Notes: a model not told the origin generated them from the letters alone. DNA of 64,000 bases from a candidate division WOR-1 bacterium RIFOXYB2_FULL_45_9 (GCA_001771575.1 MEUD01000001.1:991277-1055276), one strand, 5' to 3'; shown: positions 8,859-54,651, counted from the first letter of the stretch. Translations and numbers: made by a program.

Positions 8859-8871
8859 TAAGGGGAGTAAA

Positions 8872-10593: not shown

Positions 10594-10691
10594 ATCAACT
10601 GAAATTTCCCCCAGAGGATGTCGATAAATATAAGGAAGGAATAGGAGCGCGCGGCCAATAGGCCTCCCGCCCATTTTACAGGAGGAAAAAA

Positions 10692-11639
10692 ATGATTCAC
10701 AACACAAGACCGGTACATTCAAGGATAACAACTACTTTCACGCCGAGGACCAACCAGCTGGCCGCCCTGCTTCGGACAATGGTCCGTTCGCTCGGCTTTG
10801 TCGGCGGGCTCGGTTTGCTCAACGCCGCTTGCGGTGGAGGGTCTGACGGCCCCACCGGTCTTGAGATCGCCAAAGAAGGGATCGACGCCGGTTCATTCAG
10901 CACTTTCGACGGGGGACGGGCCGATGCTCTCCCCGATGCCATCGCTCAACCGGAAGCCTCTCAAACAGACGCCGTCTCCGAAGAAGTCAAACAAGACCCG
11001 CCGGTCGGCATCCTCGCCCAGTCCGGCTGGCTCTATGTCCCGGCCGAGCAGATCGGCAAAACGGTTTTTGTGACCGCCAACTTCGCTCTCCAGGCCCCAG
11101 ACGGCACCCCAATGATCATCCCTGGGATCCAGAACGCCAAAAAAGTCGTGGTTGAATTTGTCACCGACTCGACCGAACTCCCAAATCTTTACGACGACCC
11201 GATGCGGGCGCCAAACGCCGCTTATCCCTGCGTTCCCGGAGTCTGCAACCTGGCGCTCGACGGCAGCGGCCAATATTTGATAAAATCGGTCCCGGCCAAT
11301 GAGCTTGGCGATATTATCACTCCATTATATTTAACGATGTTCAAAGCGGTTTCCAAGATCTCCAACAACGGCCAGGCCGTGGCGCCGCAGGAATCCCCTT
11401 TCGACCTGGAAACTTCTCCCAACATGGTCGGATCAGCGTGCGAACTGCCGGCTGAACTGACCAACATGGAAGCCGGGACCGCCTATTCCGCGCCGGCCTC
11501 TGTTGTGCTCAACCCCGACTTTTATCTTTCCGGCTCCATGCAGTGGGAAGGAGAGGCCCAGTTCGGCGTCAATACCGAGGGGGTCGCCTACTCCGGATAT
11601 GGTTTTAACGTAAAATTCATTGTAAGGGTGGTGGAGTAA
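10692..11639 (+). CDS. Secreted / probable lipoprotein, hypothetical
   Basis: Strong RBS AGGAGG upstream. Hydrophobic stretch ending 'LLNAAC GGGSDG' (lipobox-like Cys). Ends 5 nt before the next gene. An alternative ATG start lies at 10779. Confidence 0.6.
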   Translation: MIHNTRPVHSRITTTFTPRTNQLAALLRTMVRSLGFVGGLGLLNAACGGGSDGPTGLEIAKEGIDAGSFSTFDGGRADALPDAIAQPEASQTDAVSEEVKQDPPVGILAQSGWLYVPAEQIGKTVFVTANFALQAPDGTPMIIPGIQNAKKVVVEFVTDSTELPNLYDDPMRAPNAAYPCVPGVCNLALDGSGQYLIKSVPANELGDIITPLYLTMFKAVSKISNNGQAVAPQESPFDLETSPNMVGSACELPAELTNMEAGTAYSAPASVVLNPDFYLSGSMQWEGEAQFGVNTEGVAYSGYGFNVKFIVRVVE

Positions 11640-11643
11640 AAAC

Positions 11644-14600: not shown

Positions 14601-16521
14601 CGTCACGGTCACCAACCCTGGTAAAACACCGGCGACCCTGGTCAATGGGTTCAAGGTTGAACCGGCGACCCTGGCGCCAACCATCAAGAGCATCACACCA
14701 GACAGCGCCCTGCAAGGGGAGACCGTTAAAGTCACAATTATTGGCGACAACTTTGAGCCGGGAGCGACCGTCCGTTTGACCAGGCTTTTCCAAACCCCGA
14801 TCAATGGAGGCAAGCTCATTTTTGTTTCCAACAAAGAGATTACCTGTGAGTTCCCGATCCCGGCTCTCGCCTCAACCGGACAATGGAATGTTGAGATCAT
14901 TCAAGGGACCGATAGCGCGGTTTTGACTAATGGTTTTACTATTATTTCATCTTCAACGATCGTCCCGACCGTCACCTCGATCGACCCCAACAACGGGGTC
15001 CAGGGAGAAACGGTCAACATCGTCAACGTCGTCGGGACAAACTTTGTGACCGGCGCGACCGTTAAGCTCTCGTTGAGCGGCCAGCCCGACATCAACGCGA
15101 CCAATGTTACCGTATTCGACAGCTCGCACATCACTTGCCGCTTCCCTCTGCCGCTCGGGGCAATGCTCGGCAAGTGGGACGTCACCGTCACCAACCCAAG
15201 CACCCTCTCCGGCACCCTACTGCAGGGTTTTGAGATCTTCGCGGCGCCGGGAACCGCTCCGGTCATCACCAGCATCACGCCTAACACCGGCAAACTGGGA
15301 GAGACCGTCGCCATTACCAATCTGGCCGGATCAAACTTCCTGAATGGCGCGACCGTTAAGATCGCCAAGACCGGTGAAACACCGATTGACGCGACCGGGG
15401 TCACCGTGATCAGCTCAAACCAGATCACCTGCTTCATTCCGCTTGCCGCGACTACCGTAACCGGCTCCTGGACCGTCATGGTCACCAATCCGGACACCCA
15501 GACCGGACAACTGACCGACGGGTTTAGCGTTACGTCGAGCGAAACCGACCCGGTCACCATTATTAATATTACCCGAGACGGTGACTCGCCCGGTTCGGGA
15601 ATCACTATAACCTGGACTACTGATCCTGCTAATATCGGAGTTGATGTTTACGCACTGACCTGCGCTATCGATCAACCATCAGCCAGCTACACATCGTACT
15701 TCACTACCGAAGCGACTAAGTGGAGCAAGGTCGCCGACAATCTGACCAGCGGAACATACCAGATCCCGAATTTAGTCGGGACCGGCAACGCGATTTACTA
15801 TAAGCTGATCGCTCACAACGCGACCCTGCAAGACAGCGACCTGCTGGCCAATGTTGTTGGAAAATTCGATCTGATCGTCGGACCGTCCGACACGCAACCA
15901 GACAAGTTCTTTGTTTCCCTGCCACTTGAGCCGATCGCTCCCAAAACCAATTCGGTCACCGATCTTTTCGGCAGCCAGGTTGGCGAGGGAGATGGGCTCT
16001 TGATCTTCAACATGAACAAAGACGTTACCTATGGCTCGCTCTATCAAGGCGGCGTTTGGGCCGCATTCCCGGGCGTACCAGCGATCAACAATTTGGCCGC
16101 CGGCCGGGCCTACGGATTCTTGACGCTGGCTGAAAAATACATCACCATTGTCGGTAAAGTGCCAACCGCGCCGACCAACGATCTGTCGCTGGCAGGTGGC
16201 TGGGACAGTGTTAAAGACCAGGCAGCGATTGCCGAATGGATTGGTAATGCTTATCCGACACCGATAAATATGGCTGTGTCCGGTTTGACCAGCGCCACTT
16301 CCATTGGCGATTCCCCTCTCAACGGCGGAACCGCATACCAGTTCAATGCCAACGCCGATCTGATGAACGGGGTTGACGGAATGGCGGTCAACACGACCGG
16401 TGGCTGGGTCAACGCGACGCTTAGCGCACCGGCCATGCTGCAGCTTGTCCCGGGTAAGGGCTATATGCTGAACGAACCGGTTAAACAGTCATTTAACTGG
16501 TCCCAGCCTAAGCCCTACTAA
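11644..16521 (+). CDS. Giant secreted surface protein: signal peptide, beta-propeller-like N-domain, at least 8 IPT/TIG-like Ig repeats, and a C-terminal module shared with the 45.4-57.3 kb paralog family
   Basis: Signal peptide 'MKSIKKAVWTIFLIFGLVTLGSAFA'. Repeats of the form 'P.I.SI.P..G..G.TV.I.G..F..GATV'. C-terminal 'YYKLIAHNA...VGKFDLIV...FVSLPLEPI'. Confidence 0.8.
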   Translation: MKSIKKAVWTIFLIFGLVTLGSAFAAADAVIIPSKSAVNPIHQTLYVPDNTTSPARIRVYSYNGSSWNTTPTNITPAGILTTAKIYGLTVSEDGSSLFVSINDLRQSRVRIYALTSGTPGTYQDATWARDGSGNLTEGDASIAGMAVQGDMLYVADMNLGRIHYFKKTNGTWAHNGDITGGLSVLGPYFDVAVSAPEANGNYSIFVTRKSNTSAKELLVYRYESGAVVNTLKTSFDLQVPTYLKIAGGKLCIALNGTDGDVKIYTISSTSPYLTEKATISNPSGVTANYGWNGLDVTPDNSYLYYIQAQNANETSTKMYKVYLPSANGAITALNVNSYTTTSKYDGLAISPDRLRLATSYSGDGTIKQFDLNGDLGNSGAIAPVVTSITPTSANWGESKAVVIKGEHFLATTTVFLVNGTEHQISAPVVVSPTTINATIDTNLFVNETKTYALRLKNGTSQNDLLSAFTINKTNQAPIAPTASGLSQKVGGQTLAFGGKTNAASITFGMKMSDPNNPDTLTPQTNIGGGSWVSGTAVSYTGTEVNGSVTVDISGYADGSYNWSARVKDAANTYSSATAPTSNPDFIIDRTPPKVSSTTPAEGSATAAPSTTIKIVFNEAMKTSVFNGAAAVVKIGTTVIAHTESYDNATNTLTITPSSPGLPPGSAVKVSLYNNSQNQAIADITGNTLDGDKDGVSEGYPTDEFKLNFTVAGTNSAPNAFDKISPTNASILYTLSPTLTWENNGDPDAGDYIDHYIVTIKNNNTQVTTDYTVAGTESSFPTPLLSVSNTYSWHVAAFDKWGASYDSQPWWYFSILPVPTPTIDANGVNPNSGERGQTLNVEITGTGFYDQTAVSFSGTGITVNSTTYNSATKVTANISISSSAALGAGDVTVTNPGKTPATLSGAFTVTDLVPTPTIDFNGVNPNSGQQGQTLNVIITGTGFISSTDVVFSGMIKDIDVNSITVNSATQLTANISIMGTAATTFRNVTVTNPGKTPATLVNGFKVEPATLAPTIKSITPDSALQGETVKVTIIGDNFEPGATVRLTRLFQTPINGGKLIFVSNKEITCEFPIPALASTGQWNVEIIQGTDSAVLTNGFTIISSSTIVPTVTSIDPNNGVQGETVNIVNVVGTNFVTGATVKLSLSGQPDINATNVTVFDSSHITCRFPLPLGAMLGKWDVTVTNPSTLSGTLLQGFEIFAAPGTAPVITSITPNTGKLGETVAITNLAGSNFLNGATVKIAKTGETPIDATGVTVISSNQITCFIPLAATTVTGSWTVMVTNPDTQTGQLTDGFSVTSSETDPVTIINITRDGDSPGSGITITWTTDPANIGVDVYALTCAIDQPSASYTSYFTTEATKWSKVADNLTSGTYQIPNLVGTGNAIYYKLIAHNATLQDSDLLANVVGKFDLIVGPSDTQPDKFFVSLPLEPIAPKTNSVTDLFGSQVGEGDGLLIFNMNKDVTYGSLYQGGVWAAFPGVPAINNLAAGRAYGFLTLAEKYITIVGKVPTAPTNDLSLAGGWDSVKDQAAIAEWIGNAYPTPINMAVSGLTSATSIGDSPLNGGTAYQFNANADLMNGVDGMAVNTTGGWVNATLSAPAMLQLVPGKGYMLNEPVKQSFNWSQPKPY

Positions 16522-16539
16522 AATAGGAGGAATCATTAA

Positions 16540-19500
16540 ATGATCAAAAAAGTGAAGTCTTTTAAAAAATTGTTGCTTACCCTCCTAGCGGTGACACTAT
16601 TGACTGGGGCGGCTAACGCTTTGGCGGTAACTGTCTCTTGCAACGGCACCAATAGCCCGGCGAACCAAATTTATAACAGCACAGGGATCGGAGGAACGCT
16701 CCTTTCTGCCAGCAAATTCGTGCAAATCATTCAGTCCACCGACACTACTCCTGGCGCACCGGACCCAGCAACCGGCATTCCGGCTGGTGATTCAGTAGCA
16801 TCGACTGGAACCCTAGCTACCGCTGGTAATTTTTCAGCCAGTGTCAACATCACCACTAGCAACCATGTTTACATCCGAGCTTGGGAAACCTGGAACGGAA
16901 CCGGAACACCAACTGGCAAATATGGCACTTCCGAGTTAAAAAACGTCGGTACGGGTTTTACCTATACATTTAAACCGGCAAGTTTCGCGACCACTATTGA
17001 CATGCCGGTTCAAGCGACCCTTACTACCATCGCTCCCAACAGCCGCGGCCAGGGAGCACAGAGCCAAAGCCTGACTTTGACCGGTTCCAACTTCCAGAGC
17101 GGCGCCACCGTTCAGATCAGCGGCAGCGGGATCACCATTAATTCAACGACCGTCAACACCGCGACCCAGATTACGATCAACGTCAACATTGACACGGCCG
17201 CCGCCACTGGCGCCCGCAATGTCACCGTCACCAATCCGAGCGCAGAGGCCAGCAACACGGCCACGTTTACCATTAACGCCGGCCCTTTGGCGACCTCGGC
17301 CAATCCGGCCACCGCGGACCAGGGCTTTACCGGCAATGTCGTCCTGACCGGGACCAACTTCCACAGCGGAGCCTGGGCCGCCACCAACGCCGTTTTCAGC
17401 GGCAGCGGGATCACCGTCAATTCTGTCACTTTCAATAGCGCGACCCAATTAACCGTCAACGTCGCCATCGCCGCCGGAGCAACCGCCGGCGCGCGGACAG
17501 TCACTCTGACCAACCCCGATGACGCCGGTATCTTGACCAGCAGCGCGATTTTAACTATTAATACTGTTTCCACCGCTCCGACCATCACCAGGCTGGAGCA
17601 AACCAGCGCCCCCGGTGTGCCGATCACTTCGGCCAGCATCGGCGATGGTATTTCGATTATCGGTTCTAATTTCGGAGCAACTCAAGGAACCAGCACGATC
17701 GCGATTAACGGCACCGCTGTTACCGCATTTTACTACTGGAGCGCGGGCAAGATCGATATCGCGGTTCCAACCGGGGCAACTTCCGGCAACGTGGTCGTCA
17801 CTGTTAATAGCGTCGCCAGTAACGGGCAACCTTTGACGATCAACAGCGCTCCTCCGGCGCTTAGCGTCTCCACCAACAGTCTCCCCAACGGGACCGTCGG
17901 TGTCACTTTCAATCAAACCTTGCAAGCGTCCGGCGGCACTGCTCCTTACACCTCATGGGCAATTACTGTTGGTTCATTACCAGCCGGTCTGTCGCTCAAC
18001 ACTTCAACCGGAATGATTTCGGGAACGCCGACCACCGCTCAAACAGCTAACTTCACGGTCCAGGTAACCGATTCAGCCGCCATGACGGCAATCAAGGCGC
18101 TCTCGATCGTAATCGATCCGGCGGGGGTTGTAACCAATCCAAACATCTCCGGCATTAACCCGGCGACCGCTTATCTTGGCCAATCCATTATCATTAGCGG
18201 CGCTAACTTTGGCGCCAGCAAAGGGGCCAGCACCGTCTCGATCGGCGGCGTCAGCGCTCTCCCCGCCACCTGGAGCGACACTTCAATTTCCGTCGCAGTT
18301 CCTTCAGGTGTCGCCAGCGGAGCGGCCCAGGTCGTGGTCTCCGTCGCCGGCAAGACCGGCTCCAGCTCAATTTCAGTCGACACCAGCCGGACCTACCTCG
18401 AAGATTTTGAGGGAGGGTGCGTCGGCAACTGGACCATCGATAATAATAGCGACGGCAACCCGGATTCCGGCTACTACGCCTTTGGTACCGGGGTTGACCC
18501 AAATAACAGCACCATTACCGCCAACGGCCCGCAAGCCGAAGCGGCCAAAGAAGGGGCCAGGGGGATGAAGATCAAATACTCCTATACCTCTGATTGGGGC
18601 GGCGGCTGGGGAGCGGCTCTCGCTAACCAAATCAACCTCTCCAGCGCGGACAAGATCAATCTCTACGTCAAATGGGACGGCTCCAGCAACGACGTGAAAA
18701 TCGGCCTCAAAGATGCCGACGGAACTTCGTTTGCCGCTTCCGTCACCAACGCAACCCTGGCCGCCCTTTCGGGATACGGACAGGTTAGCCTTGACAAATC
18801 AAGCTTTGCTTACGACAAAGACGGCAGTGACACCGGCGCCGACGCCAGCTTCGACTGGACCAAGGTCGGAAGCTACAACCTTGTTTACACAACCAAGGGG
18901 ACAACCGCCAACTATCAATATATCGACAGCATTTTCGCGTCGACCGGGAGCACCCCGCCGCCGCCTCCACCTCCGCCAACCGGGGACGAGCCGGTCATCA
19001 CCGCGATCGATCCTGTCATCGGCCCGGCCGGGACCAAGATGACGATCACCGGTTACAACTTTAGGGACAAAGATACCAGCACCACCCGGAAGGTCCAATT
19101 TATCTCGGCCGCCAACGTCATCGTTGAAGCATCAATTATCAGCTGGGAAAGCACCCGGATCGTCCTGACCGTCCCTGCCGCTCTGGGGACCGGAGCCTAC
19201 GACGTCAAAGTCCTGGTTGAGTTCCCGTCAGCCTCTGACCCGAGCATTATCCGGTCGTTCTATTCCAACCCGGCCGCCTTCACCGTCACCGCAACCGCTC
19301 CCCCTCCGGGAACGATCATCGCCTACCCGACACCGTTCAATCCAAACAGCGGCAACCCGCTCAAGGTTGAGTTCGACCCGGGAAGCGCGACCAACATTGG
19401 GGTCTACCTGTTCGACATGACCGCCAAACTGGTCAAACGGGACAACATCTCCGTCGGCCAGTTTACCTGGGACGGCAGAGACACCTACGGCATGCCGGTC

Positions 19501-19587
19501 GGGGACGGGGTCTTCCTGGTCCGGATAGTCAACAACGAGAATCAGAGCCTGATCGCCAAAGGCAAAATCCTCGTCGTCAAGAAGTAA
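16540..19587 (+). CDS. Secreted TIG/Ig-repeat protein with C-terminal FlgD-Ig / T9SS-CTD-like beta-sandwich (cargo 1)
   Basis: Signal peptide 'MIKKVKSFKKLLLTLLAVTLLTGAANA'. IPT/TIG-like repeats. A PPPPPPPP linker. C-terminal 'AYPTPFNPNSGNPLKVEF...GVYLFDMTAKLV...FTWDGRDTYGMPVGDGVFLVRIV...KGKILVVKK'. Confidence 0.8.
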   Translation: MIKKVKSFKKLLLTLLAVTLLTGAANALAVTVSCNGTNSPANQIYNSTGIGGTLLSASKFVQIIQSTDTTPGAPDPATGIPAGDSVASTGTLATAGNFSASVNITTSNHVYIRAWETWNGTGTPTGKYGTSELKNVGTGFTYTFKPASFATTIDMPVQATLTTIAPNSRGQGAQSQSLTLTGSNFQSGATVQISGSGITINSTTVNTATQITINVNIDTAAATGARNVTVTNPSAEASNTATFTINAGPLATSANPATADQGFTGNVVLTGTNFHSGAWAATNAVFSGSGITVNSVTFNSATQLTVNVAIAAGATAGARTVTLTNPDDAGILTSSAILTINTVSTAPTITRLEQTSAPGVPITSASIGDGISIIGSNFGATQGTSTIAINGTAVTAFYYWSAGKIDIAVPTGATSGNVVVTVNSVASNGQPLTINSAPPALSVSTNSLPNGTVGVTFNQTLQASGGTAPYTSWAITVGSLPAGLSLNTSTGMISGTPTTAQTANFTVQVTDSAAMTAIKALSIVIDPAGVVTNPNISGINPATAYLGQSIIISGANFGASKGASTVSIGGVSALPATWSDTSISVAVPSGVASGAAQVVVSVAGKTGSSSISVDTSRTYLEDFEGGCVGNWTIDNNSDGNPDSGYYAFGTGVDPNNSTITANGPQAEAAKEGARGMKIKYSYTSDWGGGWGAALANQINLSSADKINLYVKWDGSSNDVKIGLKDADGTSFAASVTNATLAALSGYGQVSLDKSSFAYDKDGSDTGADASFDWTKVGSYNLVYTTKGTTANYQYIDSIFASTGSTPPPPPPPPTGDEPVITAIDPVIGPAGTKMTITGYNFRDKDTSTTRKVQFISAANVIVEASIISWESTRIVLTVPAALGTGAYDVKVLVEFPSASDPSIIRSFYSNPAAFTVTATAPPPGTIIAYPTPFNPNSGNPLKVEFDPGSATNIGVYLFDMTAKLVKRDNISVGQFTWDGRDTYGMPVGDGVFLVRIVNNENQSLIAKGKILVVKK

Positions 19588-19597
19588 AGGAGAAGCC

Positions 19598-21559
19598 ATG
19601 AAATTCTTTACCAAACTTGACGATATATATACGAGGGGGAAAAGCCAAATGCTAAACATCAAATTGTCGCGTGCTTGTGTCGCTTTCTTATTGCTTACAG
19701 CTTTAAGCTTACAGCTTGTTAGCCCTGCCTTCGCCTCCGGCTACCTCGCTGACCCAATGAGCATCGGCGTCGGCGCCCGCTCTATGGGGATGGGGAAAGC
19801 GTATGTCGGTATGGCTGAAGACGGGGACGCGATTTTTACCAACCCGGCCGGGATCGCCGGCATCAGCTCCGCCAAGCTCTCCAGCATGTACACCAACCTG
19901 ATGGGGGACGTTAATTACACCGTCCTCGGCGGCGCCTTTCCTTATGGCGACAAGTCGGCCATCGGGATCGGGCTGGTCAGCTCACGCGTGGCCGATATTA
20001 CCCTGCGCGACGATACCGGAGCGATCACCGGCTCCAACCTGACCTGGGGGAGCCACGTTTTGTTCGTTTCTTACGGCACCTATTTAAGCGAACTGCCGCT
20101 CAATTTGAATTTGGGCAAAGATGTCGCTGTCGGAGCCAATCTCAAGTATTATAATGTCGGCGGCTCCGGGCTCGACGGGTCCGGCTCCGGTTTTGACGCC
20201 GATCTCTCGGCCCTTTATCCGGCCAATGAATACGCAACCCTCGGCGTCACCCTGCAGAACGCCCTGCCGGCCAGCATCGGGGCCAAGATCACCAAGTCTG
20301 GGAGCGATTACGACTCTATCCCGTCAACCCTTAAGGTCGGCGCCAAAGTCGCCCTGATGGATAAAGAAGGGAAAGGGCTGTTTACCAACAACAGCCGCAA
20401 GCTTTACACCAATGTCGATTACGATTATTATCCGACCAGGACCAGCGTCCCCGGAACTCTTCACGCCGGAATCGAGTTCTGGCCGACCGAAAACCTGGCC
20501 CTGCGGGCCGGTTCCGACAGTTCCGACCTGACCCTGGGGGTCGGTGTCCGGGCTTCCGGCGTCGCTTTCGACTATGCTTATCATCCTTACAGCGGGATCA
20601 CCGAAAACACCTCCCACTATTTCTCGATCAGCTACGTCGGCGACCCGACCAAACGGACCCTCCAGATCTCGGTCGACTCGCCGGCCGACAAAGCGGTCAT
20701 TTATGACGACAACATAAAGGTCTCCGGCAAGGTCAATTTCACCGAAGGGGAAATCGGCCCCACCATCAAAGACGTGACCATTAAGGTCAATGGGGTCAAT
20801 GCCCAGGTCATGCCTGACGGCTCCTTTACCGCCAACTCTCCGGTCAACAAATACGGCAAGAAACTGATCGTCGTGGAGGCAACCACTCCCGCCGGCGACG
20901 GCACGGTCAAAGAACTGCGGCTCGTCCGCCTGACTTCGTTTGCCGACGTTCCTGAAGGGTACTGGGCCAAGATGCCGATCGAAAACAACGCCACCGTCGG
21001 TCTGGTCCAGGGTTATCCGGACGGCAACTTCAAGCCGGCCAGCGCCCTGACCCGGGCCGAGCTCGCCACCCTGCTTGTCAGGGCCAGGGGGATAGAACCC
21101 TCCGCCGGCCGCGCCCGCCAGGTCTTCAAAGACGTCAAGCCTGATTTTTGGGGAGCCAAGTACGTTGAGATCGCCCAGCGCGAAGGACTGATCAAGGGTT
21201 ACCCGGACAAGACCTTCCGACCCAACAACAAGATCAGCAAAGCGGAAGGGATCGCCGTCCTGGTCCGCTTCGACAAGCTCGCTTTAGCGGAAGTCGACGC
21301 CAAACCGTACTGGGACGTCTCCATCCATCATTGGGCGGCCCGCCACATTCAAGCGGCCAAAGACGCCGGGATGCTCAAGTTCGTCGACAACAACAGGCTC
21401 GGTCCCAAACAAGTCTTAGTCCGCGCCCAGGCGGTTGACATGCTGGGTAAAACATCTCTGGCGAGTGGCAAGATCAAAGACCTCTACACCTGGGAAAAAG
21501 GTTTCCAGAAAGAGTTCACTCCAGAAGATCGGCCAAAGATCAGGGCGTCAGTTTACTAA
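19598..21559 (+). CDS. FadL/PorV/PorP-like outer-membrane beta-barrel + Ig-like module + 3x SLH domains (barrel-SLH 1)
   Basis: Signal peptide. N-terminal 'GARSMGMGKAYVGMAEDGDAIFTNPAGIAG' (NPA strand motif of the FadL/PorV/PorP families). About 300 aa of alternating-hydrophobic beta-strand pattern. Three SLH repeats ('FADVPEGYWAKMPIE...', 'FKDVKPDFWGAKYVEIA...', 'YWDVSIHHWAARHIQ...'). An alternative ATG start lies at 19649. Confidence 0.8.
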   Translation: MKFFTKLDDIYTRGKSQMLNIKLSRACVAFLLLTALSLQLVSPAFASGYLADPMSIGVGARSMGMGKAYVGMAEDGDAIFTNPAGIAGISSAKLSSMYTNLMGDVNYTVLGGAFPYGDKSAIGIGLVSSRVADITLRDDTGAITGSNLTWGSHVLFVSYGTYLSELPLNLNLGKDVAVGANLKYYNVGGSGLDGSGSGFDADLSALYPANEYATLGVTLQNALPASIGAKITKSGSDYDSIPSTLKVGAKVALMDKEGKGLFTNNSRKLYTNVDYDYYPTRTSVPGTLHAGIEFWPTENLALRAGSDSSDLTLGVGVRASGVAFDYAYHPYSGITENTSHYFSISYVGDPTKRTLQISVDSPADKAVIYDDNIKVSGKVNFTEGEIGPTIKDVTIKVNGVNAQVMPDGSFTANSPVNKYGKKLIVVEATTPAGDGTVKELRLVRLTSFADVPEGYWAKMPIENNATVGLVQGYPDGNFKPASALTRAELATLLVRARGIEPSAGRARQVFKDVKPDFWGAKYVEIAQREGLIKGYPDKTFRPNNKISKAEGIAVLVRFDKLALAEVDAKPYWDVSIHHWAARHIQAAKDAGMLKFVDNNRLGPKQVLVRAQAVDMLGKTSLASGKIKDLYTWEKGFQKEFTPEDRPKIRASVY

Positions 21560-21580
21560 TGCCTGTAGTCTTGATATAAT
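21552..21580 (+). promoter_or_regulatory. Candidate sigma70-like promoter for the second cassette
   Basis: -35 TTTACT (21552-57), 17-nt spacer, perfect -10 TATAAT (21575-80). It overlaps the stop of the upstream gene. Confidence 0.35.
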
Positions 21581-21595
21581 TGTCGACATAAATAG

Positions 21596-21646
21596 TACCT
21601 CCGAGTGCATAATTAGTTTTATTGGATCCAAGTTTACTCGGAGGTA
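21596..21646 (+). promoter_or_regulatory. 5'UTR hairpin with perfect 11-bp stem that sequesters the Shine-Dalgarno sequence of cargo gene 2
   Basis: 'tacctccgagt' (21596-21606) pairs with 'actcggaggta' (21636-21646). The loop is 29 nt. GGAGG lies inside the 3' arm. The ATG is at 21652. Confidence 0.45.
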
Positions 21647-21651
21647 AGATA

Positions 21652-23343
21652 ATGAAAATTAAAAGATTCCTTGGGACCATGTTAGTTGTCGGGTTATCAC
21701 TGGTCGCTTTTACCGGTATCGCCAATGCCACCGCCGTCACTGTTTCCTGTAGCAACACAAATTCACCAGCCAACCAGATCTATAACAACACCGGCGTCGG
21801 CGGGACCCTTTTACCCTCTGGCCGCTACGTGCAACTCATCCAATCAGCCGATAACACCGCAGGAGCGCCAAACAGCTCCACCGGTCTGCCAGCTGGCGAT
21901 ACGGTCATCTCTTCCGGAACACTCTCTGCCGCAGGCAACTTTACCGGCGCCTGCAATATCACTCAAAGTAATTACATCTACATCCGGGCCTGGGACACCT
22001 GGAACGGGACCGGTACCCCTTCCGGAAACTATGGAACCTCGATCCCAAGTAGTGTCGGCACCGGTTTTGTTTTTACTTATAAACCTGCCAGCTTCGCGAC
22101 CACAACCAGCTTATCCACACCCGCCACTCCGGCAGCATTAAGCGGGCTCAACCCGGACAACGGGACCCAAGGGGTCAGCAATCTGGCGGTCATATTAACT
22201 GGGACCAATATCCAGAATGGCGCCACCGCCACGTTCAGCGGGACCGGGATCACGATCAATTCAACAACTATCAACAGCGCGACCCAGGCAACGGTTAATA
22301 TCAGTATCGCGGCCTCAGCCCCCACAGGAGGTCGGACTGTTTCTTTAACCAATCCGGGCGCTTCAGCCAGCAATACCATCGCTTTTACCGTCAACGCTTC
22401 CGGCGGGGCCAACCACGCTCCAACGGCCAATGATGTCGCCACCTCAACGCCGACCAACACCGCGGTCATCGTCAACTTTAGCGCCAGCGACCCGGACGGC
22501 AATCCCCTGACCTATTCGCTGGTCTCAAGTCCAACCCACGGTAGTTTGGGCGCTATCAGCGGCAACCAGGTCACCTACACGCCGACTGCCGGCTACACCG
22601 GCTCCGACAGCTTCACCTACCGGGCTAATGACGGAACAGCCTACTCCAACGTCGCGACGGTCAACATTACCGTTGGCTCGGCAACGCCGCCGATCCCGCC
22701 AACTCCGGGAACTTCACCGGTCATTACCAACATCTATCGCTTAGGCTCCCTGGCGACCGATCCCAACAGGGCGATGGGCCCCGCGGGGGTCAGGATCATC
22801 GTGGAAGGGACCGGCTTCCGCGACAGCGCGACCAGCGCCAGCCGCGCCCTTGAGTTCACGTCGCTGACCACCTCCTCTCTGACCGAAGGGGTCATTATTA
22901 ACTGGACCGACACGACCATTGAAGCGATCCTGCCGGCCGGCCTGTCAGCCGGGCTCTACGCCGTGGACGTCAAGGTCTCCGCCCCGTCGGCGGCCGATCC
23001 ATCGATCATTACCACCTATGTTTCGACCCCGGCCAACTTCCAGGTCACTTCTTCGGCGGCCGGAGATATCGCTCAGATCTTCCCCAACCCATTCAACCCG
23101 CTGACCGAGCAGGTCAATATTGTCGTCAGCAATACCGGCGGCGCCTCCCGCCTCGGCTATTACATTTACGATATGGCTGCCCAGCTGGTTTACAAAACGA
23201 CTTCCGGCACCAGCCAAATCGCCTGGAACGGGATCGACCAATGGGGCCAGCAGGTAGCAGACGGCGCTTATCTCTTGCGGGTTGTCAACGAAGATACCAA
23301 GAGCTTGCTCGCCAAGGGTAAGATCCTCGCGGTGAAACGGTAA
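21652..23343 (+). CDS. Secreted TIG/Ig protein with cadherin-like module and C-terminal FlgD-Ig/T9SS-CTD-like domain (cargo 2, paralog of 16540..19587)
   Basis: The track ORF starts at TTG 21622. ATG 21652 with GGAGGT upstream gives signal peptide 'MKIKRFLGTMLVVGLSLVAFTGIANA'. N-terminus about 80% identical to cargo 1. 'NHAPTANDVATSTPTNTAVIVNFSASDPDGNPLTYSLV' is cadherin/VCBS-like. C-terminal 'IFPNPFNPLTEQVNIVV...GYYIYDMAAQLV...WNGIDQWGQQVADGAYLLRVV...KGKILAVKR'. Confidence 0.8.
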   Translation: MKIKRFLGTMLVVGLSLVAFTGIANATAVTVSCSNTNSPANQIYNNTGVGGTLLPSGRYVQLIQSADNTAGAPNSSTGLPAGDTVISSGTLSAAGNFTGACNITQSNYIYIRAWDTWNGTGTPSGNYGTSIPSSVGTGFVFTYKPASFATTTSLSTPATPAALSGLNPDNGTQGVSNLAVILTGTNIQNGATATFSGTGITINSTTINSATQATVNISIAASAPTGGRTVSLTNPGASASNTIAFTVNASGGANHAPTANDVATSTPTNTAVIVNFSASDPDGNPLTYSLVSSPTHGSLGAISGNQVTYTPTAGYTGSDSFTYRANDGTAYSNVATVNITVGSATPPIPPTPGTSPVITNIYRLGSLATDPNRAMGPAGVRIIVEGTGFRDSATSASRALEFTSLTTSSLTEGVIINWTDTTIEAILPAGLSAGLYAVDVKVSAPSAADPSIITTYVSTPANFQVTSSAAGDIAQIFPNPFNPLTEQVNIVVSNTGGASRLGYYIYDMAAQLVYKTTSGTSQIAWNGIDQWGQQVADGAYLLRVVNEDTKSLLAKGKILAVKR

Positions 23344-23354
23344 TGGAGGGGCAA

Positions 23355-25265
23355 ATGGAGAATATCATGAAAAACATTAAAAACATCCGGTTACTGACAA
23401 CGGTTTTTGCTTTATTGCTTACAGCTTACAGCTTACAGCTTATTTCCCCTGCCCACGCCTCCAGCTACATCGCCGAACCGACCGGCATCGCCGTCGGGGC
23501 CAGGGCCTTGAGCCTGGGCCGCGCTTATGTCGGTATCGCCGAGAACGGCGAAGCGGTCTTCGCCAACCCGGCCGGCATCGCCCTGATCACCGGTCCCAAG
23601 GTCAGCGCCATGTATTCGTCCGTCATGGGGGACGTGGGCTACAGCGTCTTGAGCGGCGCCTATCCGATCAACGATAAAGCGGCCCTGGGCCTCGGTTTTG
23701 CCAGCGCCAGGCTCTCGGGCATTCCCATTACCGATTCGACCGGCAATGTCCTCGGAACCGGGGGCTGGGGGAACCATGTCCTAACCCTCTCCTACGGCAC
23801 CTTTTTAAGCGCTTTCAATCCCAACTTTAACAAAGATATCCTGCTCGGCGCCAACCTGAAATATGTCAGCGTTGGCGGCGAAGGAACCACCGTTTCGACC
23901 GTCGGCGGGACGGCTCTCAACGCCGATCTTGGGGTCTTATTTCCGGTCAATAACCAGATCATGCTCGGGGGTGTTTTTCAGAATATCCTCGTTGGCAGTA
24001 AGCTCAACACCAGCGGCGGCTCAACCGACGACACTCTCGCCCCGGTTCTGAAGCTCGGTTCGCGCTTCAACCTGATCGGCGAAAGCGACAAGGCTTTCTT
24101 CAGCCATGCCACCCGCAAGCTCTACCTCTCCGTTGACGGCGATATCAACTTAAGCAGTAAAAAACCGTCCGCGCTTTACGCCGGTCTCGAGTTTTGGCCG
24201 GTCGAGAGCCTCGCCCTGCGCGCCGGCGCCGACAACGGCGACCTGACCGCCGGGATCGGCATCCGCTATTCCGGGGTTGAGTTCAACTACGCCTACCACC
24301 CCTATTCCGAGATCAGCGAGAACACCACTCATTACTTTTCGTTCGGTTACCTCGGCGAGGACAAAAAGCGGGAATATAACGTCCTGATCGAAAGCCCGGC
24401 CGACAAATCGATCGTCTATTCCGATAACGTCGCGGTCACCGGACGGATCGAAGGGTTCACCTCCTCCGACGCCGCCAAAAACCTGACCGTCAAGGTCAAC
24501 GACATCAACGCGGTTGTCTCCCCGGACGGTAAATTCCAGGTCAATGTCCCGGTCAACCAGTACGGCAAAAAGCTTTTGGTTGTCAAAGCTTACGATACCG
24601 AAGGAAATGCCGGGGCCAAAGACCTGCGGATCGTCCGCCTGACCTCGTTTGCCGACGTTCCCGAAGGGTACTGGGCCAAGATGCCGATCGAAAACAACGC
24701 CACCGTTGGGCTGGTCCAGGGATATCCTGACGGAAACTTCAAGCCGGAGAGGCCGCTCACCCGGGCCGAACTTGCCACCCTGTTGGTCAGAGCCAAAGGG
24801 ATTGACGTCAAGGACGATCGGGCCCGCCAGGTCTTCAAAGACGTCAAATCAGATTTCTGGGCCGCCAAGTACATTGAGATTGCTCAGCGCGAAGGGCTGG
24901 TCAAAGGTTACCCGGACAAGAGTTTCCGCCCCAATAACAAGATCAGCAAAGCTGAAGGGATCGCGGTTTTGGTCCGCTTCGACAAGCTCCCGCTGGCTGA
25001 AGCCAACGCCAAGCCATACTGGGACGTCCCCGCCTACCACTGGGCCGCCCGCTACATTGAAGCGGCCAAGTCGGCCGGGATGCTCAACTTTGTTTCCGAC
25101 AACCGTTTCAACCCGAAACAAGCGATGCTCCGCTCCCAAACTGTTGAAGTTCTTGGCAAAACTTCGCTGGCCGGCGCCAAGATCAAAGACCTGTATGAGT
25201 GGGAGAAAGGCTTTGCCCCATCAACCATCCAGGAGCGCCCGACGCTGAAGGCATCATTATATTAA
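23355..25265 (+). CDS. FadL/PorV/PorP-like beta-barrel + Ig-like + 3x SLH (barrel-SLH 2, paralog of 19598..21559)
   Basis: The track ORF starts at 23343, overlapping the previous stop. ATG 23355 follows GGAGG; ATG 23367 gives 'MKNIKNIRLLTTVFALLLTA...'. Same NPAG motif: 'GARALSLGRAYVGIAENGEAVFANPAGIA'. The SLH region is about 85% aa and about 93% nt identical to paralog 1. Confidence 0.8.
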   Translation: MENIMKNIKNIRLLTTVFALLLTAYSLQLISPAHASSYIAEPTGIAVGARALSLGRAYVGIAENGEAVFANPAGIALITGPKVSAMYSSVMGDVGYSVLSGAYPINDKAALGLGFASARLSGIPITDSTGNVLGTGGWGNHVLTLSYGTFLSAFNPNFNKDILLGANLKYVSVGGEGTTVSTVGGTALNADLGVLFPVNNQIMLGGVFQNILVGSKLNTSGGSTDDTLAPVLKLGSRFNLIGESDKAFFSHATRKLYLSVDGDINLSSKKPSALYAGLEFWPVESLALRAGADNGDLTAGIGIRYSGVEFNYAYHPYSEISENTTHYFSFGYLGEDKKREYNVLIESPADKSIVYSDNVAVTGRIEGFTSSDAAKNLTVKVNDINAVVSPDGKFQVNVPVNQYGKKLLVVKAYDTEGNAGAKDLRIVRLTSFADVPEGYWAKMPIENNATVGLVQGYPDGNFKPERPLTRAELATLLVRAKGIDVKDDRARQVFKDVKSDFWAAKYIEIAQREGLVKGYPDKSFRPNNKISKAEGIAVLVRFDKLPLAEANAKPYWDVPAYHWAARYIEAAKSAGMLNFVSDNRFNPKQAMLRSQTVEVLGKTSLAGAKIKDLYEWEKGFAPSTIQERPTLKASLY

Positions 25266-25289
25266 GCTTTAAGCTTAAAGCTGTAAGCT
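25263..25289. repeat. Array of 4 AGCTT-type heptamers (TAAGCTT TAAGCTT AAAGCTG TAAGCTA), palindromic, immediately after the gene stop
   Basis: Read directly. Related arrays occur at 19696-19716, 23421-23441 and 45410-45436. Confidence 0.6.
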
Positions 25290-25300
25290 AAAAAAAATAA

Positions 25301-25331
25301 AAGCCCCGGGTAAACCTGGGGCTTTTTTGTT
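25301..25331 (+). terminator. Rho-independent terminator
   Basis: 'agccccggg taaa cctggggct' stem followed by TTTTTTGTTG. Confidence 0.65.
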
Positions 25332-25477
25332 GTCTTTGTCCCACTCTCTGTCCCGCCCTTGCCCGAGCCCTTTGTCCCGCCTTTACTTCCGCCCTTTCCC
25401 CAAATAGCCTGAAATTTTTCCCATGATCCCCCGATAGATACTTGGTAGTTAATTAATATCTTTCAGGAGGAAAAACA

Positions 25478-26170
25478 ATGTCTATTAGAACAAGTTCAAT
25501 TGCTAATCACGCCCGGGTTGTTAATTTTGTCCGTCGGTTCGCCGCTCCGGCCCTTCTTCTGGCGGCTCAAACCGGCTGCGGCGAAAAATCAGCCGCGCCG
25601 ATCGACGCCAGGTGCGTCAATTTGCCGGCCACATCAGCCTGCTCAACCGCCGCCGCGCCGGCCGCGCCAACGGTAAGCGAGACCATTATCGTGACCAAAC
25701 TGGATGGAATTAAAGACCTTGTTCCAACCCTAAACACACCGCTCACCATTGGCCGACCAACCAGCCTGATTTTCTCTTTCCCTCAAGGGACCCAGGTTCC
25801 AACCGATTTTAGATTTTCCGCCCGGCTAATCGCCGCCGACGGCACCTCACCGCTCCCATTGTTTGACCAGAACGTCGGCATATCCGGCAACACCATCACC
25901 ATCCCTAATGTCACCCTTGCCGTCCGACCAGGAACTTACACCATCTCATTGATGGCTTACGACAGGAACAGCAATCTGGACAAGATCTATTCCTTGAACG
26001 ATATTAAACTGGAAGCAGCGGCAAGCGGAGCACAGCCAACCAGCACCAGCACCGTTCGTCCTCCGGTACCGACTTCAACGGGGGCTAAACCGCCCGTCAC
26101 GACAGCCGACCCATGTGCCGGAAAAACTGGCGTATTTCTGTCAGCTTGCAAAAAAGCCCAAGGAAAATAA
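25478..26170 (+). CDS. Secreted/lipoprotein-like protein ending in a Thr/Pro linker + 'DPCAGKTGVFLSACKK' motif
   Basis: AGGAGG RBS. Signal-like 'FAAPALLLAAQTGC'. C-terminal 'PPVTTADPCAGKTGVFLSACKKAQGK'. Confidence 0.65.
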   Translation: MSIRTSSIANHARVVNFVRRFAAPALLLAAQTGCGEKSAAPIDARCVNLPATSACSTAAAPAAPTVSETIIVTKLDGIKDLVPTLNTPLTIGRPTSLIFSFPQGTQVPTDFRFSARLIAADGTSPLPLFDQNVGISGNTITIPNVTLAVRPGTYTISLMAYDRNSNLDKIYSLNDIKLEAAASGAQPTSTSTVRPPVPTSTGAKPPVTTADPCAGKTGVFLSACKKAQGK

Positions 26171-26223: not shown

Positions 26224-27333
26224 ATGAGCTATACGTCAATAATTAATCGAGTGTCCCGAAGAATAGCCCCGATCGCTTTGTCGGCCGCCGCTCTGCTTGG
26301 CGCCTGCAACAAAGCCGCTCCCAAGAAACACGTTTCCGGACAGCTCCCCAATAGCTCTTACGCCCATATAATGGAAAGCCGCGATCTGCTGGCCCAATCA
26401 ATCTGCGGCGCGAAGGCAACCGATGGGACAACCATCGCCACAGTTCCCAACAACCCACTACTTAACACGATCCTCTCCGTCAACGGCAAACAGGTGACTT
26501 TAGCCGAGGTCGTCGCCGAGTTTGTCATTCGGGAAAGCGACCAGCGGGCCAAATTTATCGCCTTAACACCGGGCAAGCAAGCCGAAGCCATTAAAGCGGT
26601 CGCCTCAAGAATTGATCCTAACAGCGGGATCCTCGCCAAGCTTTCTCCCGAATCCCTTGCCCTGCTCACTCGCTATTGCGAAACCGGCGGGCGCCCAACG
26701 CCAACCGGCTTGATCCCTCACGTTGAAGTTGGCATTACCGACCAAATGATCGAAGAGGCCATTAGCGGCGGCGCGCCGCTGGCCGCGTCGACATCAACGG
26801 CAACGGCCCAGCTTGGACTGCGGAGTTGCGACGCCAACATCCCCTGCTCGACCAACAATATTACGCCTGGGCAAAAAATCACCGTCACCCTTATTCTTAA
26901 TGGCAAGGATCTCCCGATAAGTATTAACGATTATCTCCTTAACATCGGCAACAGCGGATTGGTCGGCATCATTAAAACAATTGAATCTCATAATGCCGGA
27001 TATACGGTCCCAGGCACCGGCCGCACCTTGGCGGCTGACGGGACCGTTTTTACGATCGAATTCACGGCTGACACAAACGTCCGGGAGCCCATCCTCCGAG
27101 CTCTCAAACTCTACGTCAAACAGCAAAACAACCAAATTGCGGTTGCCGACCAGTCGGCCTTTATCAGGGTGCTTCTTCCCAGCGCCCCCGTGGCAACAGC
27201 AACTGTCGCACCACCAACGGCAACAACTCCGCCCCCCCCACCGGCTAAGACCGCGCCACCCGCCACGACAACCGACCCATGTGCCGGAAAAACTGGCGTA
27301 TTCCTGTCAGCTTGCAAAAGAAACCAAAGGTAA
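26224..27333 (+). CDS. Lipoprotein ending in a Pro-rich linker + 'DPCAGKTGVFLSACKR' motif
   Basis: 'IALSAAALLGAC' lipobox-like. C-terminal 'PPPPPAKTAPPATTTDPCAGKTGVFLSACKRNQR'. The last roughly 50 nt are nearly identical to the 3' end of the previous gene. Confidence 0.65.
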   Translation: MSYTSIINRVSRRIAPIALSAAALLGACNKAAPKKHVSGQLPNSSYAHIMESRDLLAQSICGAKATDGTTIATVPNNPLLNTILSVNGKQVTLAEVVAEFVIRESDQRAKFIALTPGKQAEAIKAVASRIDPNSGILAKLSPESLALLTRYCETGGRPTPTGLIPHVEVGITDQMIEEAISGGAPLAASTSTATAQLGLRSCDANIPCSTNNITPGQKITVTLILNGKDLPISINDYLLNIGNSGLVGIIKTIESHNAGYTVPGTGRTLAADGTVFTIEFTADTNVREPILRALKLYVKQQNNQIAVADQSAFIRVLLPSAPVATATVAPPTATTPPPPPAKTAPPATTTDPCAGKTGVFLSACKRNQR

Positions 27334-39361: not shown

Positions 39362-39454
39362 CCTACAACACGCTCATCCGCCGTTGGCGGATTCGCTACA
39401 ACTAACAACTGATTATTTATAACTACTCATTAGTTGTTGGAGCAGAGCCAAAAT

Positions 39455-39850: not shown

Positions 39851-39861
39851 CCTTACAGCCC

Positions 39862-46587: not shown

Positions 46588-46592
46588 ATTTA

Positions 46593-47717: not shown

Positions 47718-47722
47718 CCTCC

Positions 47723-49126: not shown

Positions 49127-49139
49127 TCCTAATTCCCTT

Positions 49140-50321: not shown

Positions 50322-50328
50322 TCCTTCT

Positions 50329-53317: not shown

Positions 53318-53335
53318 TTAATAAACCTCCTAATT

Positions 53336-54643: not shown

Positions 54644-54651
54644 ATTTCTCC

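Follow-up and report, generated by a model that had tools for sequence, protein, structure and literature searches.

Two tandem gene pairs for CTD-bearing secreted proteins and PorV-like barrels with SLH tails in a WOR-1 bacterium, and their possible role in surface anchoring

In the PorU-PorV and PorZ-PorQ pairs of Porphyromonas gingivalis, a FadL-like barrel of 14 strands, PorV or PorQ, holds the uncleaved C-terminal beta-sandwich domain (CTD) of a sortase or an LPS carrier, and porU and porV are neighbouring genes. The genes of type B CTD cargos are located directly 5' of the gene for a dedicated PorP/SprF barrel, and the secretion of these cargos by the T9SS needs the co-expressed cognate barrel. 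In the PG1035-PorP-PorE system of P. gingivalis, in which the cargo with an uncleaved CTD is anchored by a barrel, the link to peptidoglycan is made by the OmpA_C-like domain of PorE (PMC12398890, PMC10947112). The T9SS has been described as occurring in no group other than the FCB superphylum (PMC12398890). The OmpM-type SLH tethering and its co-occurrence with CsaB have been reported for the diderm Terrabacteria, including Marguli- and Saganbacteria, in which the OmpM homologues were defined operationally as "SLH plus a predicted barrel" (bioRxiv 10.1101/2021.05.31.446380). OmpM, SlpA and Slp combine the barrel and SLH in one polypeptide that tethers the outer membrane to modified peptidoglycan, with the order of one SLH, coiled coil and barrel in OmpM, whereas OmpA begins with an outer-membrane barrel of 8 strands, with an internal last-strand signal, and ends with the periplasmic peptidoglycan-binding OmpA_C domain, without a partner cargo.

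The DNA examined here (the window) is a 64-kb stretch of the 1.67 Mb genome of a WOR-1 bacterium (Saganbacteria/Margulisiibacteriota), supplemented with the 10-kb flanks at related loci. The WOR-1/Saganbacteria lineage is uncultured and belongs to the Terrabacteria side, as a sister to Cyanobacteria. An earlier note on this sequence had described two tandem cassettes, 16540-21559 and 21652-25265, each with a CTD-bearing secreted protein (cargo) followed by a barrel protein, and all four ORFs were found at these places on the + strand (Table 1). Beyond that note, the window also contains an upstream partner of the first pair, a third barrel and a third CTD protein.

Table 1. Features of the window, with positions counted from its first nucleotide
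Feature	Position	Strand	Remarks
Giant secreted TIG/CoaZ-repeat protein, 1625 aa	11644-16521	+	First gene of the putative unit; domain profiles
Cargo 1, 1015 aa: Sec signal peptide, conserved N-terminal domain, TIG/He_PIG/CBM-like body, CTD 19267-19584	16540-19587	+	
Barrel 1, 653 aa: signal peptide, predicted hatch and 14-stranded PorV-like barrel 19736-20644, Ig-like spacer 20645-20938, three SLH repeats 20939-21487	19598-21559	+	
Sigma-70-like promoter match between barrel 1 and cargo 2	21552-21580	+	10/12 positions, TG extension
Cargo 2, 563 aa: signal peptide, N-terminal domain as in cargo 1, Big_9/cadherin-like body, CTD 23023-23340	21652-23343	+	
Barrel 2, 640 aa: PorV-like barrel 23460-24359, Ig-like spacer 24360-24647, three SLH repeats 24648-25196	23343-25265	+	
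Intrinsic-terminator-like hairpin, 12-bp stem followed by a T run	25299-25326	+	34 nt past the barrel 2 stop
CTD protein 3, secreted; CTD 45442-45759, divergent subclass	45439-46587	-	CTD HMM 83 bits, extreme C-terminus
Barrel 3: divergent PorV-like barrel, Ig spacer, three SLH repeats	60787-62697	-	Family HMM 650 bits

The gene of the giant protein ends 18 nt 5' of cargo 1, and the start of barrel 2 shares 1 nt with the stop codon of cargo 2. Barrel 2 is identical to a protein deposited as "hypothetical protein" (P0038), and the length of the closest orthologue of barrel 1 (636 aa) suggests the ATG at 19649 as the real start of the latter. The promoter match between the cassettes is weak evidence for what may be an internal promoter; in total, promoter-like sites are no more numerous here than expected from shuffled sequence. 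The hairpin past barrel 2 ranks first among the terminator-like sites on the + strand of 10400-25700, has no comparable counterpart within 11644-25265, and probably marks the operon end, as judged from the sequence. The genes would form a single operon, at about 11644-25265 and closed by this terminator, in which the gene of the giant Ig-repeat protein precedes the first of two tandem pairs of a CTD protein and a PorV-like barrel, and which would serve to make wall-anchored cell-surface proteins. The two cassettes are old paralogues (40% and 50% identity), and cassette 2 has an orthologue at the related locus L009 (82% and 84% identity).

The N-terminal domain of the barrel proteins had been taken for a FadL/PorV/PorP type, of which the PorV assignment held and the other two found no support in the profiles. 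Barrels 1 and 2, with 103.3 and 92.8 bits, respectively, pass the 90-bit cutoff of the PorV/PorQ family model NF033709, and both are far under the equivalog cutoffs for PorV (NF033710, 28.5 and 19.7 bits against 250) and PorQ (NF033711, 37.2 and 35.9 bits against 220); the score with the PorV2 model was 59.7 bits (cutoff 325). The window barrels had no match in the search with the PorP/SprF profiles (PF11751/TIGR03519), the sole match to which, sub-threshold, came from a LysM-tailed relative, and they scored 13-17 bits with Toluene_X (FadL/OMPP1/TodX, PF03349; gathering cutoff 29.7 bits). The AF2 model of barrel 1 (pLDDT 80) has the 14-stranded FadL-like fold with an N-terminal hatch, and the Foldseek search with this model placed on top the PorV chains 8gl6_F (E = 7.8e-11), from a substrate-bound translocon complex, and 6h3i_F (7.4e-10), with target TM-scores of 0.61-0.66 for the PorV chains versus 0.51 or less for FadL; PorV ranked above FadL in both structure searches. 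The NPAG motif is found in the hatch of 35/35 barrel sequences, and the last strand carries an internal signal with an aromatic end, FS[IL][SG]Y. Each barrel protein is, on this reading, an outer-membrane protein with the FadL/PorV fold, exported via Sec. FadL is nearly as close structurally as PorV, and the barrels may therefore have a transport role; the FadL/TodX channels possess neither a wall-binding tail nor a CTD-protein partner.

The Ig-like module and the three SLH repeats reported earlier were recovered in each of the two barrel proteins (PF00395, E = 3e-28 for barrel 1 and 7e-31 for barrel 2), with a weak Ig-like match (Glucodextran_B) between barrel and SLH. Among known structures, the SLH profile matched Sap (6e-20), as well as SpaA, OmpM1 (8bym, E = 8e-11) and the D. 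radiodurans SlpA. In 35 sequences, the TRAE motif of SLH1, the glutamate of xKAE in SLH2 and the arginine of xR[SA][EQ] in SLH3 show no or almost no variation, and the trimer with such TRAE-type motifs is that of the pyruvylated-SCWP-binding type; by these motifs, it belongs to the kind of SLH trimer that binds a pyruvylated wall polymer. Among the best 150 barrel relatives, the barrel is N-terminal in all and is followed by the SLH tail in 91, the other tails including LysM or SPOR above the Pfam cutoffs. The same tail position is thus held by three peptidoglycan binders, which points to an interchangeable periplasmic wall binder. With its 14 strands, the modelled barrel would place the C-terminal Ig-SLH tail in the periplasm. 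The SLH would then fasten the outer membrane with its barrel to the wall, and the only link of the cargo to the wall would be through the barrel. Accordingly, the wall-binding module proposed in the earlier note is present on the barrel, but it is the barrel rather than the cargo that the SLH should pin. The barrels do not have the N-terminal SLH, coiled-coil stalk and C-terminal porin barrel of an OmpM tether, their order being barrel, Ig and three SLH.

Sec-type signal peptides are read directly in the sequence of both cargos, the bodies of which contain TIG, He_PIG, CoaZ-repeat and Big_9/cadherin domains, as expected for the Ig-rich secreted proteins, and the last ~100 aa belong to a conserved family with the motif YPNPFNP...YIYD.TA.LV...TWDG....G..VGDG.YL.RVVNE..K.LIAKGKILVIK (CTD family HMM: 117 bits for cargo 1, at the extreme C-terminus, and 124 bits for cargo 2). 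The tails are not internal domains, all 39 instances lying no more than 1 aa from the stop codon, with the conserved basic motif at the end. The tail of cargo 1 scored 33.2 bits with the PorZ-CTD and 18.8 bits with TIGR04183, under the cutoff of 23, and the isolated tail of cargo 2 scored 28.8 bits with TIGR04183, 27.7 with FlgD_ig (cutoff 27) and 26.9 with PF18962 (cutoff 27). Among the 39 tails, matches to TIGR04183, the type A sorting domain, were obtained for 36 (E <= 0.01), to the PorU CTD for 35, to FlgD_ig for 35, to the PorZ CTD for 30, and to the type B CTD (TIGR04131) for just 2. The best PDB matches of the CTD profile were the PorU CTD (E = 1.4e-9), FlgD Ig-like domains (from 7.7e-7) and the PorZ CTD (7.8e-7). 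Judged by these profiles, the cargo tails are beta-sandwiches homologous to the T9SS CTDs, closest to PorU and PorZ. The parallel with type B CTDs and PorP/SprF barrels drawn in the earlier note has to be abandoned: since the CTD resembles type A or PorU/PorZ and the barrel is of the PorV/PorQ family, the right parallel is PorU-PorV/PorZ-PorQ, the order of the genes being shared with the type B pairs.

The CTD gene was found directly 5' of the barrel gene in 33 of the 35 related loci with enough upstream sequence to test, which bears out the expected co-occurrence of the pair in related genomes; relative to the start of the barrel match, the end of the CTD ORF ranges from a 3-nt overlap to a 270-nt gap. 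No CTD gene was recognisable directly upstream of the divergent barrels L040 and L041 or of the window barrel 3. The pairing is kept for an SLH-less barrel (L018) and for SPOR-/TPR-bearing barrels (L044), and is seen in reverse gene order at L046, with a TM-helix tail on the barrel. The identity matrices of the CTD and the barrel correlate with r = 0.79, attained by 0/2000 permutations, a co-variation confounded by the shared phylogeny, and, in contrast to the freely varying cargo bodies, the tail and its neighbouring barrel are conserved and co-vary. The pairing is well beyond chance, and the cargo and barrel are co-inherited as a unit across the phylum. It is this adjacency, together with the variability of the bodies, the strictly terminal position and basic end of the CTD and the ranking of PorV above FadL, that makes it very unlikely that the barrels simply tether the outer membrane to the wall, or conduct hydrophobic compounds as FadL-like channels, and lie beside envelope genes for co-regulation, without direct binding of the CTD, in which case the latter would be no more than a FlgD-type Ig domain, even though FlgD_ig is matched by most of the tails and the SLH, LysM and SPOR tails alone account for the tethering.

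The best explanation, and in our estimate a fairly probable one, is an operon for anchoring a surface fibre through its CTD and the barrel to the wall. The SLH trimer of the periplasmic tail would bind a peptidoglycan-linked polymer, pinning the barrel and the outer membrane to the wall; this tether would work like OmpM/SlpA, which likewise join the barrel and SLH in one chain (here, as predicted), but with the OmpA-like order of barrel first and wall binder last, and with a barrel that is 14-stranded, PorV-like and SLH-bearing. At the outer face, the uncleaved CTD of the neighbour would be held non-covalently by the cognate barrel, as in PorU-PorV and PorQ-PorZ, a likeness read here from sequence and model, and a continuous chain from the wall through the barrel and the CTD to the long Ig-repeat fibre would result, serving as an adhesin or an S-layer-like coat. 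In contrast to those pairs, every cargo here is an Ig-repeat fibre with its own barrel, the barrel ends in an Ig-SLH tail for wall binding, and the host is on the Terrabacteria side. The closest functional parallel to the wall-barrel-cargo chain is PG1035-PorP-PorE; however, the CTD here is not of type B, the barrel is not PorP/SprF, and the wall binder, SLH or in relatives LysM/SPOR, is fused to the barrel, whereas PorE is a separate OmpA_C lipoprotein. From the OmpM/SlpA tethers the barrels differ also by the pairing of their gene with that of a CTD protein. The earlier claim that such an arrangement is undescribed stands for the PorV/FadL-SLH fusion, no description of which was found in the literature searched, and has to be narrowed by the PG1035-PorP-PorE analogue (PMC10947112, PMC12398890) and the OmpM tethers in the phylum (bioRxiv 10.1101/2021.05.31.446380). 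If true, the anchoring operon would be an undescribed way to hold the surface proteins, the outer membrane and the wall together, outside the sole group with a known T9SS.

For the passage of the cargo across the outer membrane, two options would be compatible with the anchoring, a translocon of the T9SS type encoded outside the window or the help of the barrel itself, and each has a counterpart among the alternative readings. A complete T9SS might have been acquired from or shared with FCB, the barrels being dedicated PorV-like shuttles that bring the CTD of the neighbour to a SprA-type translocon and a PorU-like sortase cutting the CTD, in which case the pairing would mean a secretion dependence and not a permanent anchoring. 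The prevalence of type A matches among the tails and the PorV chains, including that of the translocon complex, on top of the structural matches speak for it, as does the lack of CTD proteins in Bacteroidota species without T9SS genes (PMC11285876). We nevertheless regard it as unlikely: the CTDs are most like the uncleaved PorU and PorZ tails, a shared shuttle needs neither one barrel per cargo nor an immobilising wall-binding tail, no core gene such as SprA/Sov, PorK/L/M/N, PorT or PorU was recognised among the ~45 genes screened in the window, the literature search gave no link of the T9SS to Margulisbacteria, and the system is described as restricted to FCB (PMC12398890).

The one-to-one gene pairs and their co-divergence, the survival of the pairing across barrels with differing tails, a lineage outside the known T9SS range (PMC12398890) and the dependence of type B cargos on their barrel would also suit a self-contained two-partner-like export, in which the FadL-type barrel with a lateral opening would help the neighbour to cross or insert at the outer membrane, with the CTD as the recognition element and no T9SS translocon, and would then keep the protein bound. 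This is quite unlikely, as the 14-stranded hatch-plugged barrel is too narrow for folded Ig-repeat proteins of 500-2000 aa and such an export is without precedent.

The unit often includes a third member. The last ~340 aa of the giant protein (15502-16518) form an unannotated "X domain", the HMM of which matches at the C-terminus every time, and in 15/16 non-paralogous cases the X-domain gene directly precedes the CTD cargo gene, followed by the barrel. By this gene order, the pair is often preceded by a giant protein, which would probably join the surface structure via its conserved C-terminal domain.

Barrel 3 is 32% identical to barrel 1 in the alignment and scored 58 bits with NF033709, under its cutoff. 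The CTD of protein 3 shares a GG..G.N insertion with the CTDs of L018b, L032b, L036 and L042; no barrel was detected after the CTD gene of L032b, and divergent barrel genes come after those of L018b, L036 and L042. In the window, barrel 3 is followed downstream by a cluster of 10 genes for secreted proteins, the last of which is the gene of CTD protein 3.

The four open reading frames of the two cassettes, each pairing a cargo (a secreted Ig-repeat protein with a T9SS-style C-terminal domain, CTD) with a protein made of a PorV-like barrel, an Ig-like module and an SLH tail, were found where the earlier note had placed them, all on the forward strand. At 91% identity, P0001 is the closest orthologue of barrel 1; it is 636 aa long, which makes the ATG at 19649 the likelier start of barrel 1.

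Features of the window discussed in the text
Feature	Position	Strand	Remark
Ser/Thr kinase, PP2C-type phosphatase and coiled-coil protein	3319-10593	+	828, 1018 and 573 aa
Giant protein	11644-16521	+	1625 aa, directly upstream of cargo 1
X domain	15502-16518	+	end of the giant protein
Cargo 1	16540-19587	+	1015 aa
Barrel 1	19598-21559	+	653 aa
Cargo 2	21652-23343	+	563 aa
Barrel 2	23343-25265	+	640 aa
Terminator-like hairpin	25299-25326		strong; 34 nt 3' of barrel 2
First predicted lipoprotein	25478-26170	+	
Second predicted lipoprotein	26224-27333	+	
841-aa protein	27346-29871		after the two lipoproteins
tmRNA gene	39451-39904	-	Rfam 156 bits, ARAGORN agrees
Run of nine consecutive genes	45439-57404	-	secreted 380-550-aa proteins without family matches
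Third CTD protein	45439-46587	-	divergent; last gene in the cluster that lies downstream of barrel 3
X-domain paralogue	47723-49126	-	smaller, secreted
X-domain paralogue	50329-51972	-	smaller, secreted
X-domain paralogue	53336-54643	-	smaller, secreted
X-domain paralogue	55977-57404	-	smaller, secreted
1067-aa protein	57556-60759	-	beside barrel 3
Barrel 3 (barrel-Ig-SLH gene)	60787-62697	-	
TIG-like ORF	62715-63974	-	upstream of barrel 3, extends to the window edge

Residues ~50-346 of barrels 1 and 2 match the NCBIfam model NF033709 of the PorV/PorQ family with 103.3 and 92.8 bits (curated cutoff 90) and lie far under the PorV, PorQ and PorV2 equivalog cutoffs; the Pfam FadL model gave a sub-threshold match alone, spanning the N-terminal hatch region. 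By the HMM test, the barrel is thus of the PorV/PorQ family but is not the PorV or PorQ equivalog, and judged from its sequence it is neither PorP/SprF nor FadL. A PorP/SprF identity was ruled out by zero model matches. In the AF2 model of barrel 1, built on an alignment of 35 family members (pLDDT 80), short N-terminal helices precede 14 strands (residues 76-329 of the 636-aa form), followed by an Ig-like sandwich (338-427) and three SLH helical units (441-612). The top two Foldseek matches are PorV chains, 8gl6_F (from the RemA-CTD-bound translocon) and 6h3i_F, with the target TM-score of 0.61-0.66 for PorV chains versus at most 0.51 for FadL. The 14 strands, the score above the NF033709 cutoff and the first place of PorV in Foldseek bear out the beta-barrel previously suspected in the N-terminal domain, and make it one of PorV type. 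The hatch motif NPAG is present in 35/35 barrel sequences, and the last strand terminates in ...FS[IL][SG]Y, followed by [LV]GE.

Both cargos start with Sec-type signal peptides, and their bodies, which are freely variable between loci, carry TIG, He_PIG, CoaZ-repeat and Big_9/cadherin-like domains. The CTD HMM, seeded with the window tails and searched against the window and 43 related loci, matched 39 ORFs, in all 39 within 1 aa of the stop codon, with the alignment motif YPNPFNP...YIYD.TA.LV...TWDG....G..VGDG.YL.RVVNE..K.LIAKGKILVIK, so that the conserved terminal motif proposed for the cargo C-termini does exist. When scanned singly, 36 of the 39 tails match TIGR04183 (T9SS type A), 35 the PorU CTD model, 30 that of PorZ and only two the type B model, while FlgD_ig and Por_Secre_tail are the Pfam matches of 35 and 28 tails, respectively. 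The best solved relatives of the CTD profile are the PorU CTD (6za2, 1.4e-9), the FlgD Ig-like domains (from 7.7e-7) and the PorZ CTD (5m11, 7.8e-7). The cargo 2 tail passes the TIGR04183 cutoff of 23 with 28.8; that of cargo 1 remains under it with 18.8 and matches the PorZ CTD with 33.2 bits. The likeness of the cassettes to type B CTD cargos encoded beside PorP/SprF barrels, as put forward in the earlier note, hence holds for the gene order but not for the families, the barrel being of the PorV/PorQ family and the type B tails so few. PorU and PorZ are T9SS substrates that keep their CTD uncleaved. The surface retention of PorZ proceeds via the barrel PorQ, and the attachment complex consists of PorU with PorV, PorQ and PorZ (PMC10947112). 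An N-terminal domain common to cargos 1 and 2 was considered as shared with the 400-aa paralogues of the window; this was rejected, as BLAST was unsupportive and the N-domain HMM found only eight cargos. Homologue searches with the isolated CTD and X domain (the C-terminal region of the giant protein) returned five and two matches, respectively, short queries missing the long proteins that contain the domain.

The pairing was assessed in those 35 of 43 related loci whose sequence reaches 400 nt or more upstream of the barrel, and in 33 of them the end of a CTD ORF lies between 3 nt inside the barrel match and 270 nt ahead of its start, as was expected if cargo and barrel co-occur in related genomes; the exceptions, L040 and L041, are divergent barrels without the Ig spacer. 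The pairing extends to a barrel without SLH (L018), to the SPOR- and TPR-bearing barrels of a tandem double cassette (L044) and, in reverse gene order, to a helix-tailed barrel (L046). The divergence of CTDs and that of barrels correlate with r = 0.79 over 528 pairs, a value reached by 0 of 2000 permutations; as a comparison of sequences confounded by shared descent, this shows co-inheritance as a unit, not binding. The window cassettes are old paralogues (CTDs 40% and barrels 50% identical), and L009 carries an orthologue of cassette 2, with 82% and 84% identity.

A second genome (L048) shows the same gene order from the giant protein to barrel 2, and no hairpin comparable to the one 3' of barrel 2 lies within this block. 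In 15 of 16 non-paralogous cases an X-domain gene is directly followed by a CTD cargo gene and a barrel, and therefore cassette 1 is a three-gene unit. The X domain (~320-345 aa, always C-terminal) has no Pfam or NCBIfam match, and its AF2 model (7-sequence alignment, pLDDT 59) is confident only over a beta-sandwich formed by the first ~120 residues. The sequence of barrel 2 is that of a protein deposited from candidate division WOR-1 bacterium RIFOXYA12_FULL_52_29 as 'hypothetical protein A3K48_04670' (contig METY01000001.1, 1.67 Mb, of GCA_001771465.1). The named homologues all come from Margulisiibacteriota/Saganbacteria/WOR-1 MAGs, with the exception of three MAG records under odd labels (L037 'Omnitrophota', L017 'Dehalococcoidia' and P0026 'Candidatus Sulfotelmatobacter sp.'), and the source-named barrel homologues among the matches listed are annotated as hypothetical, SLH domain-containing or PorV/PorQ family proteins.

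The three SLH repeats claimed for the barrel proteins are unambiguous in barrels 1 and 2 (E = 3e-28 and 7e-31), and the family SLH profile matches B. anthracis Sap (6e-20), P. alvei SpaA, V. parvula OmpM1 and D. radiodurans SlpA. Conserved are TRAE of SLH1 (R and A in 35/35 sequences), E of xKAE in SLH2 and R of xR[SA][EQ] in SLH3, a pattern that resembles TRAE/TVEE/TRAQ of SpaA. In outer-membrane barrels with an even strand count, the N- and C-termini both face the periplasm, so that with 14 strands the Ig-SLH tail should be periplasmic. A periplasmic tail is independently supported by an exhaustive search with the barrel domain only, which yielded 6122 relatives (E <= 1e-3): among the best 150 of these, the barrel is N-terminal in all, 91 have SLH tails, others bear LysM (four proteins) or SPOR (three) above Pfam cutoffs, and some end with a hydrophobic helix. 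Since SLH, LysM and SPOR are unrelated peptidoglycan binders in one position, the tail is argued to be a wall anchor. The barrel protein would be an outer-membrane tether of a new architecture, with the PorV fold, an OmpA-like domain order and swappable SLH/LysM/SPOR tails.

Several tail variants were observed as well. In P0170, P0189, P0197, P0208, P0261 and P0263, a PorV-like barrel is followed by a Pro/Lys-rich linker and a hydrophobic helix without a wall-binding domain; if real, such a helix would provide the outer-membrane barrel with another anchor in a membrane. The gene after that of P0208 (L046) encodes a beta-helix protein that bears a CTD. A barrel protein of L032 (9881-12571) has two SLH triplets, those of L040-L042 are without the Ig spacer, the second cassette of L018 (9469-10731) has a barrel without any tail, and the second barrel of L044 (9236-10711) carries TPR repeats.

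The analysis thus shows which domains the proteins carry and how the barrel folds, that the CTD is terminal, that the gene pair is syntenic and co-diverges, and that the wall-binding tails are interchangeable. The periplasmic SLH domains would pin the barrel and the outer membrane onto a pyruvylated wall polymer. By analogy with PorU-PorV, PorZ-PorQ and RemA-CTD-PorV, each barrel would use its extracellular face to hold the neighbouring protein's CTD in uncleaved form, the product being a putative chain from the wall through the barrel to an Ig-repeat fibre. Such pinning agrees with the OmpM-type tethering reported together with CsaB in diderm Terrabacteria, including this phylum (bioRxiv 10.1101/2021.05.31.446380). 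The OmpM screen of that work accepted any SLH-plus-barrel protein, and it may therefore have included these proteins with the PorV fold and the partner gene unrecognised. The new tether architecture would enlarge the OmpM picture of outer-membrane retention in these diderms, and the pairing rule can serve in naming the large surface proteins of these uncultured bacteria together with their anchors.

Sorting tails of T9SS type and barrels of PorV type count as hallmarks of the Bacteroidota/FCB group. T9SS has been described as exclusive to the FCB superphylum (PMC12398890). A conserved, multi-copy, one-to-one pair throughout a phylum next to Cyanobacteria means either that the range of T9SS is extended or that its cargo-attachment half is self-sufficient, and the weight of the finding hinges on whether these genomes lack the T9SS core. 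A tentative and rather doubtful reading is that Margulisiibacteriota have neither translocon nor motor of T9SS and that the pair of CTD protein and PorV-like barrel forms a free-standing surface-anchoring, possibly export, module. If true, recognition of a C-terminal beta-sandwich by FadL-type barrels predates, or is separable from, type IX secretion, and in the barrel fused to SLH/LysM/SPOR one polypeptide spans the outer membrane and links peptidoglycan to a fibre on the surface. In the literature searched, no paper joins PorV or FadL with SLH, and T9SS and Margulisbacteria are joined nowhere save in one unrelated review of contact-dependent predation. To this extent the arrangement is undescribed, as the earlier note held, but T9SS has a wall-linked cargo-barrel complex, PG1035-PorP-PorE (PMC12398890, PMC10947112), composed of three proteins, whereas in the present cassettes a single polypeptide comprises both barrel and wall binder.

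The nine-gene run lies directly downstream of barrel 3 and the 1067-aa protein, which has 'ISGLSASK(V/I)(S/T)G' repeats and no family match; in it the four X-domain paralogues, with the domain again C-terminal, alternate with a second, weakly related family (54652, 52070, 49140, possibly 46593), and the final member is the third CTD protein. The TIG-like ORF has no CTD match even at E <= 10 with filters off and no relatives within the related loci. A Peptidase_S74 protein (L044, 1-2775) is located two genes upstream of the SPOR-tailed barrel, and fibre-like proteins may thus be recurrent neighbours. The two adjoining predicted lipoproteins share a near-identical C-terminal motif, DPCAGKTGVFLSACK(K/R); together with the 841-aa protein, they have no family matches, no detectable homologue in 46 related loci searched and, in the window and these loci, no sign of belonging to the cargo/barrel module, and L048 has genes of like length at these positions (compared by length alone). 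The kinase, phosphatase and coiled-coil genes are upstream on the strand of the surface-protein operon. The tmRNA has an unusually long predicted tag peptide, ANVKEALSGVVWAWTNTSVLSPVAVAA.
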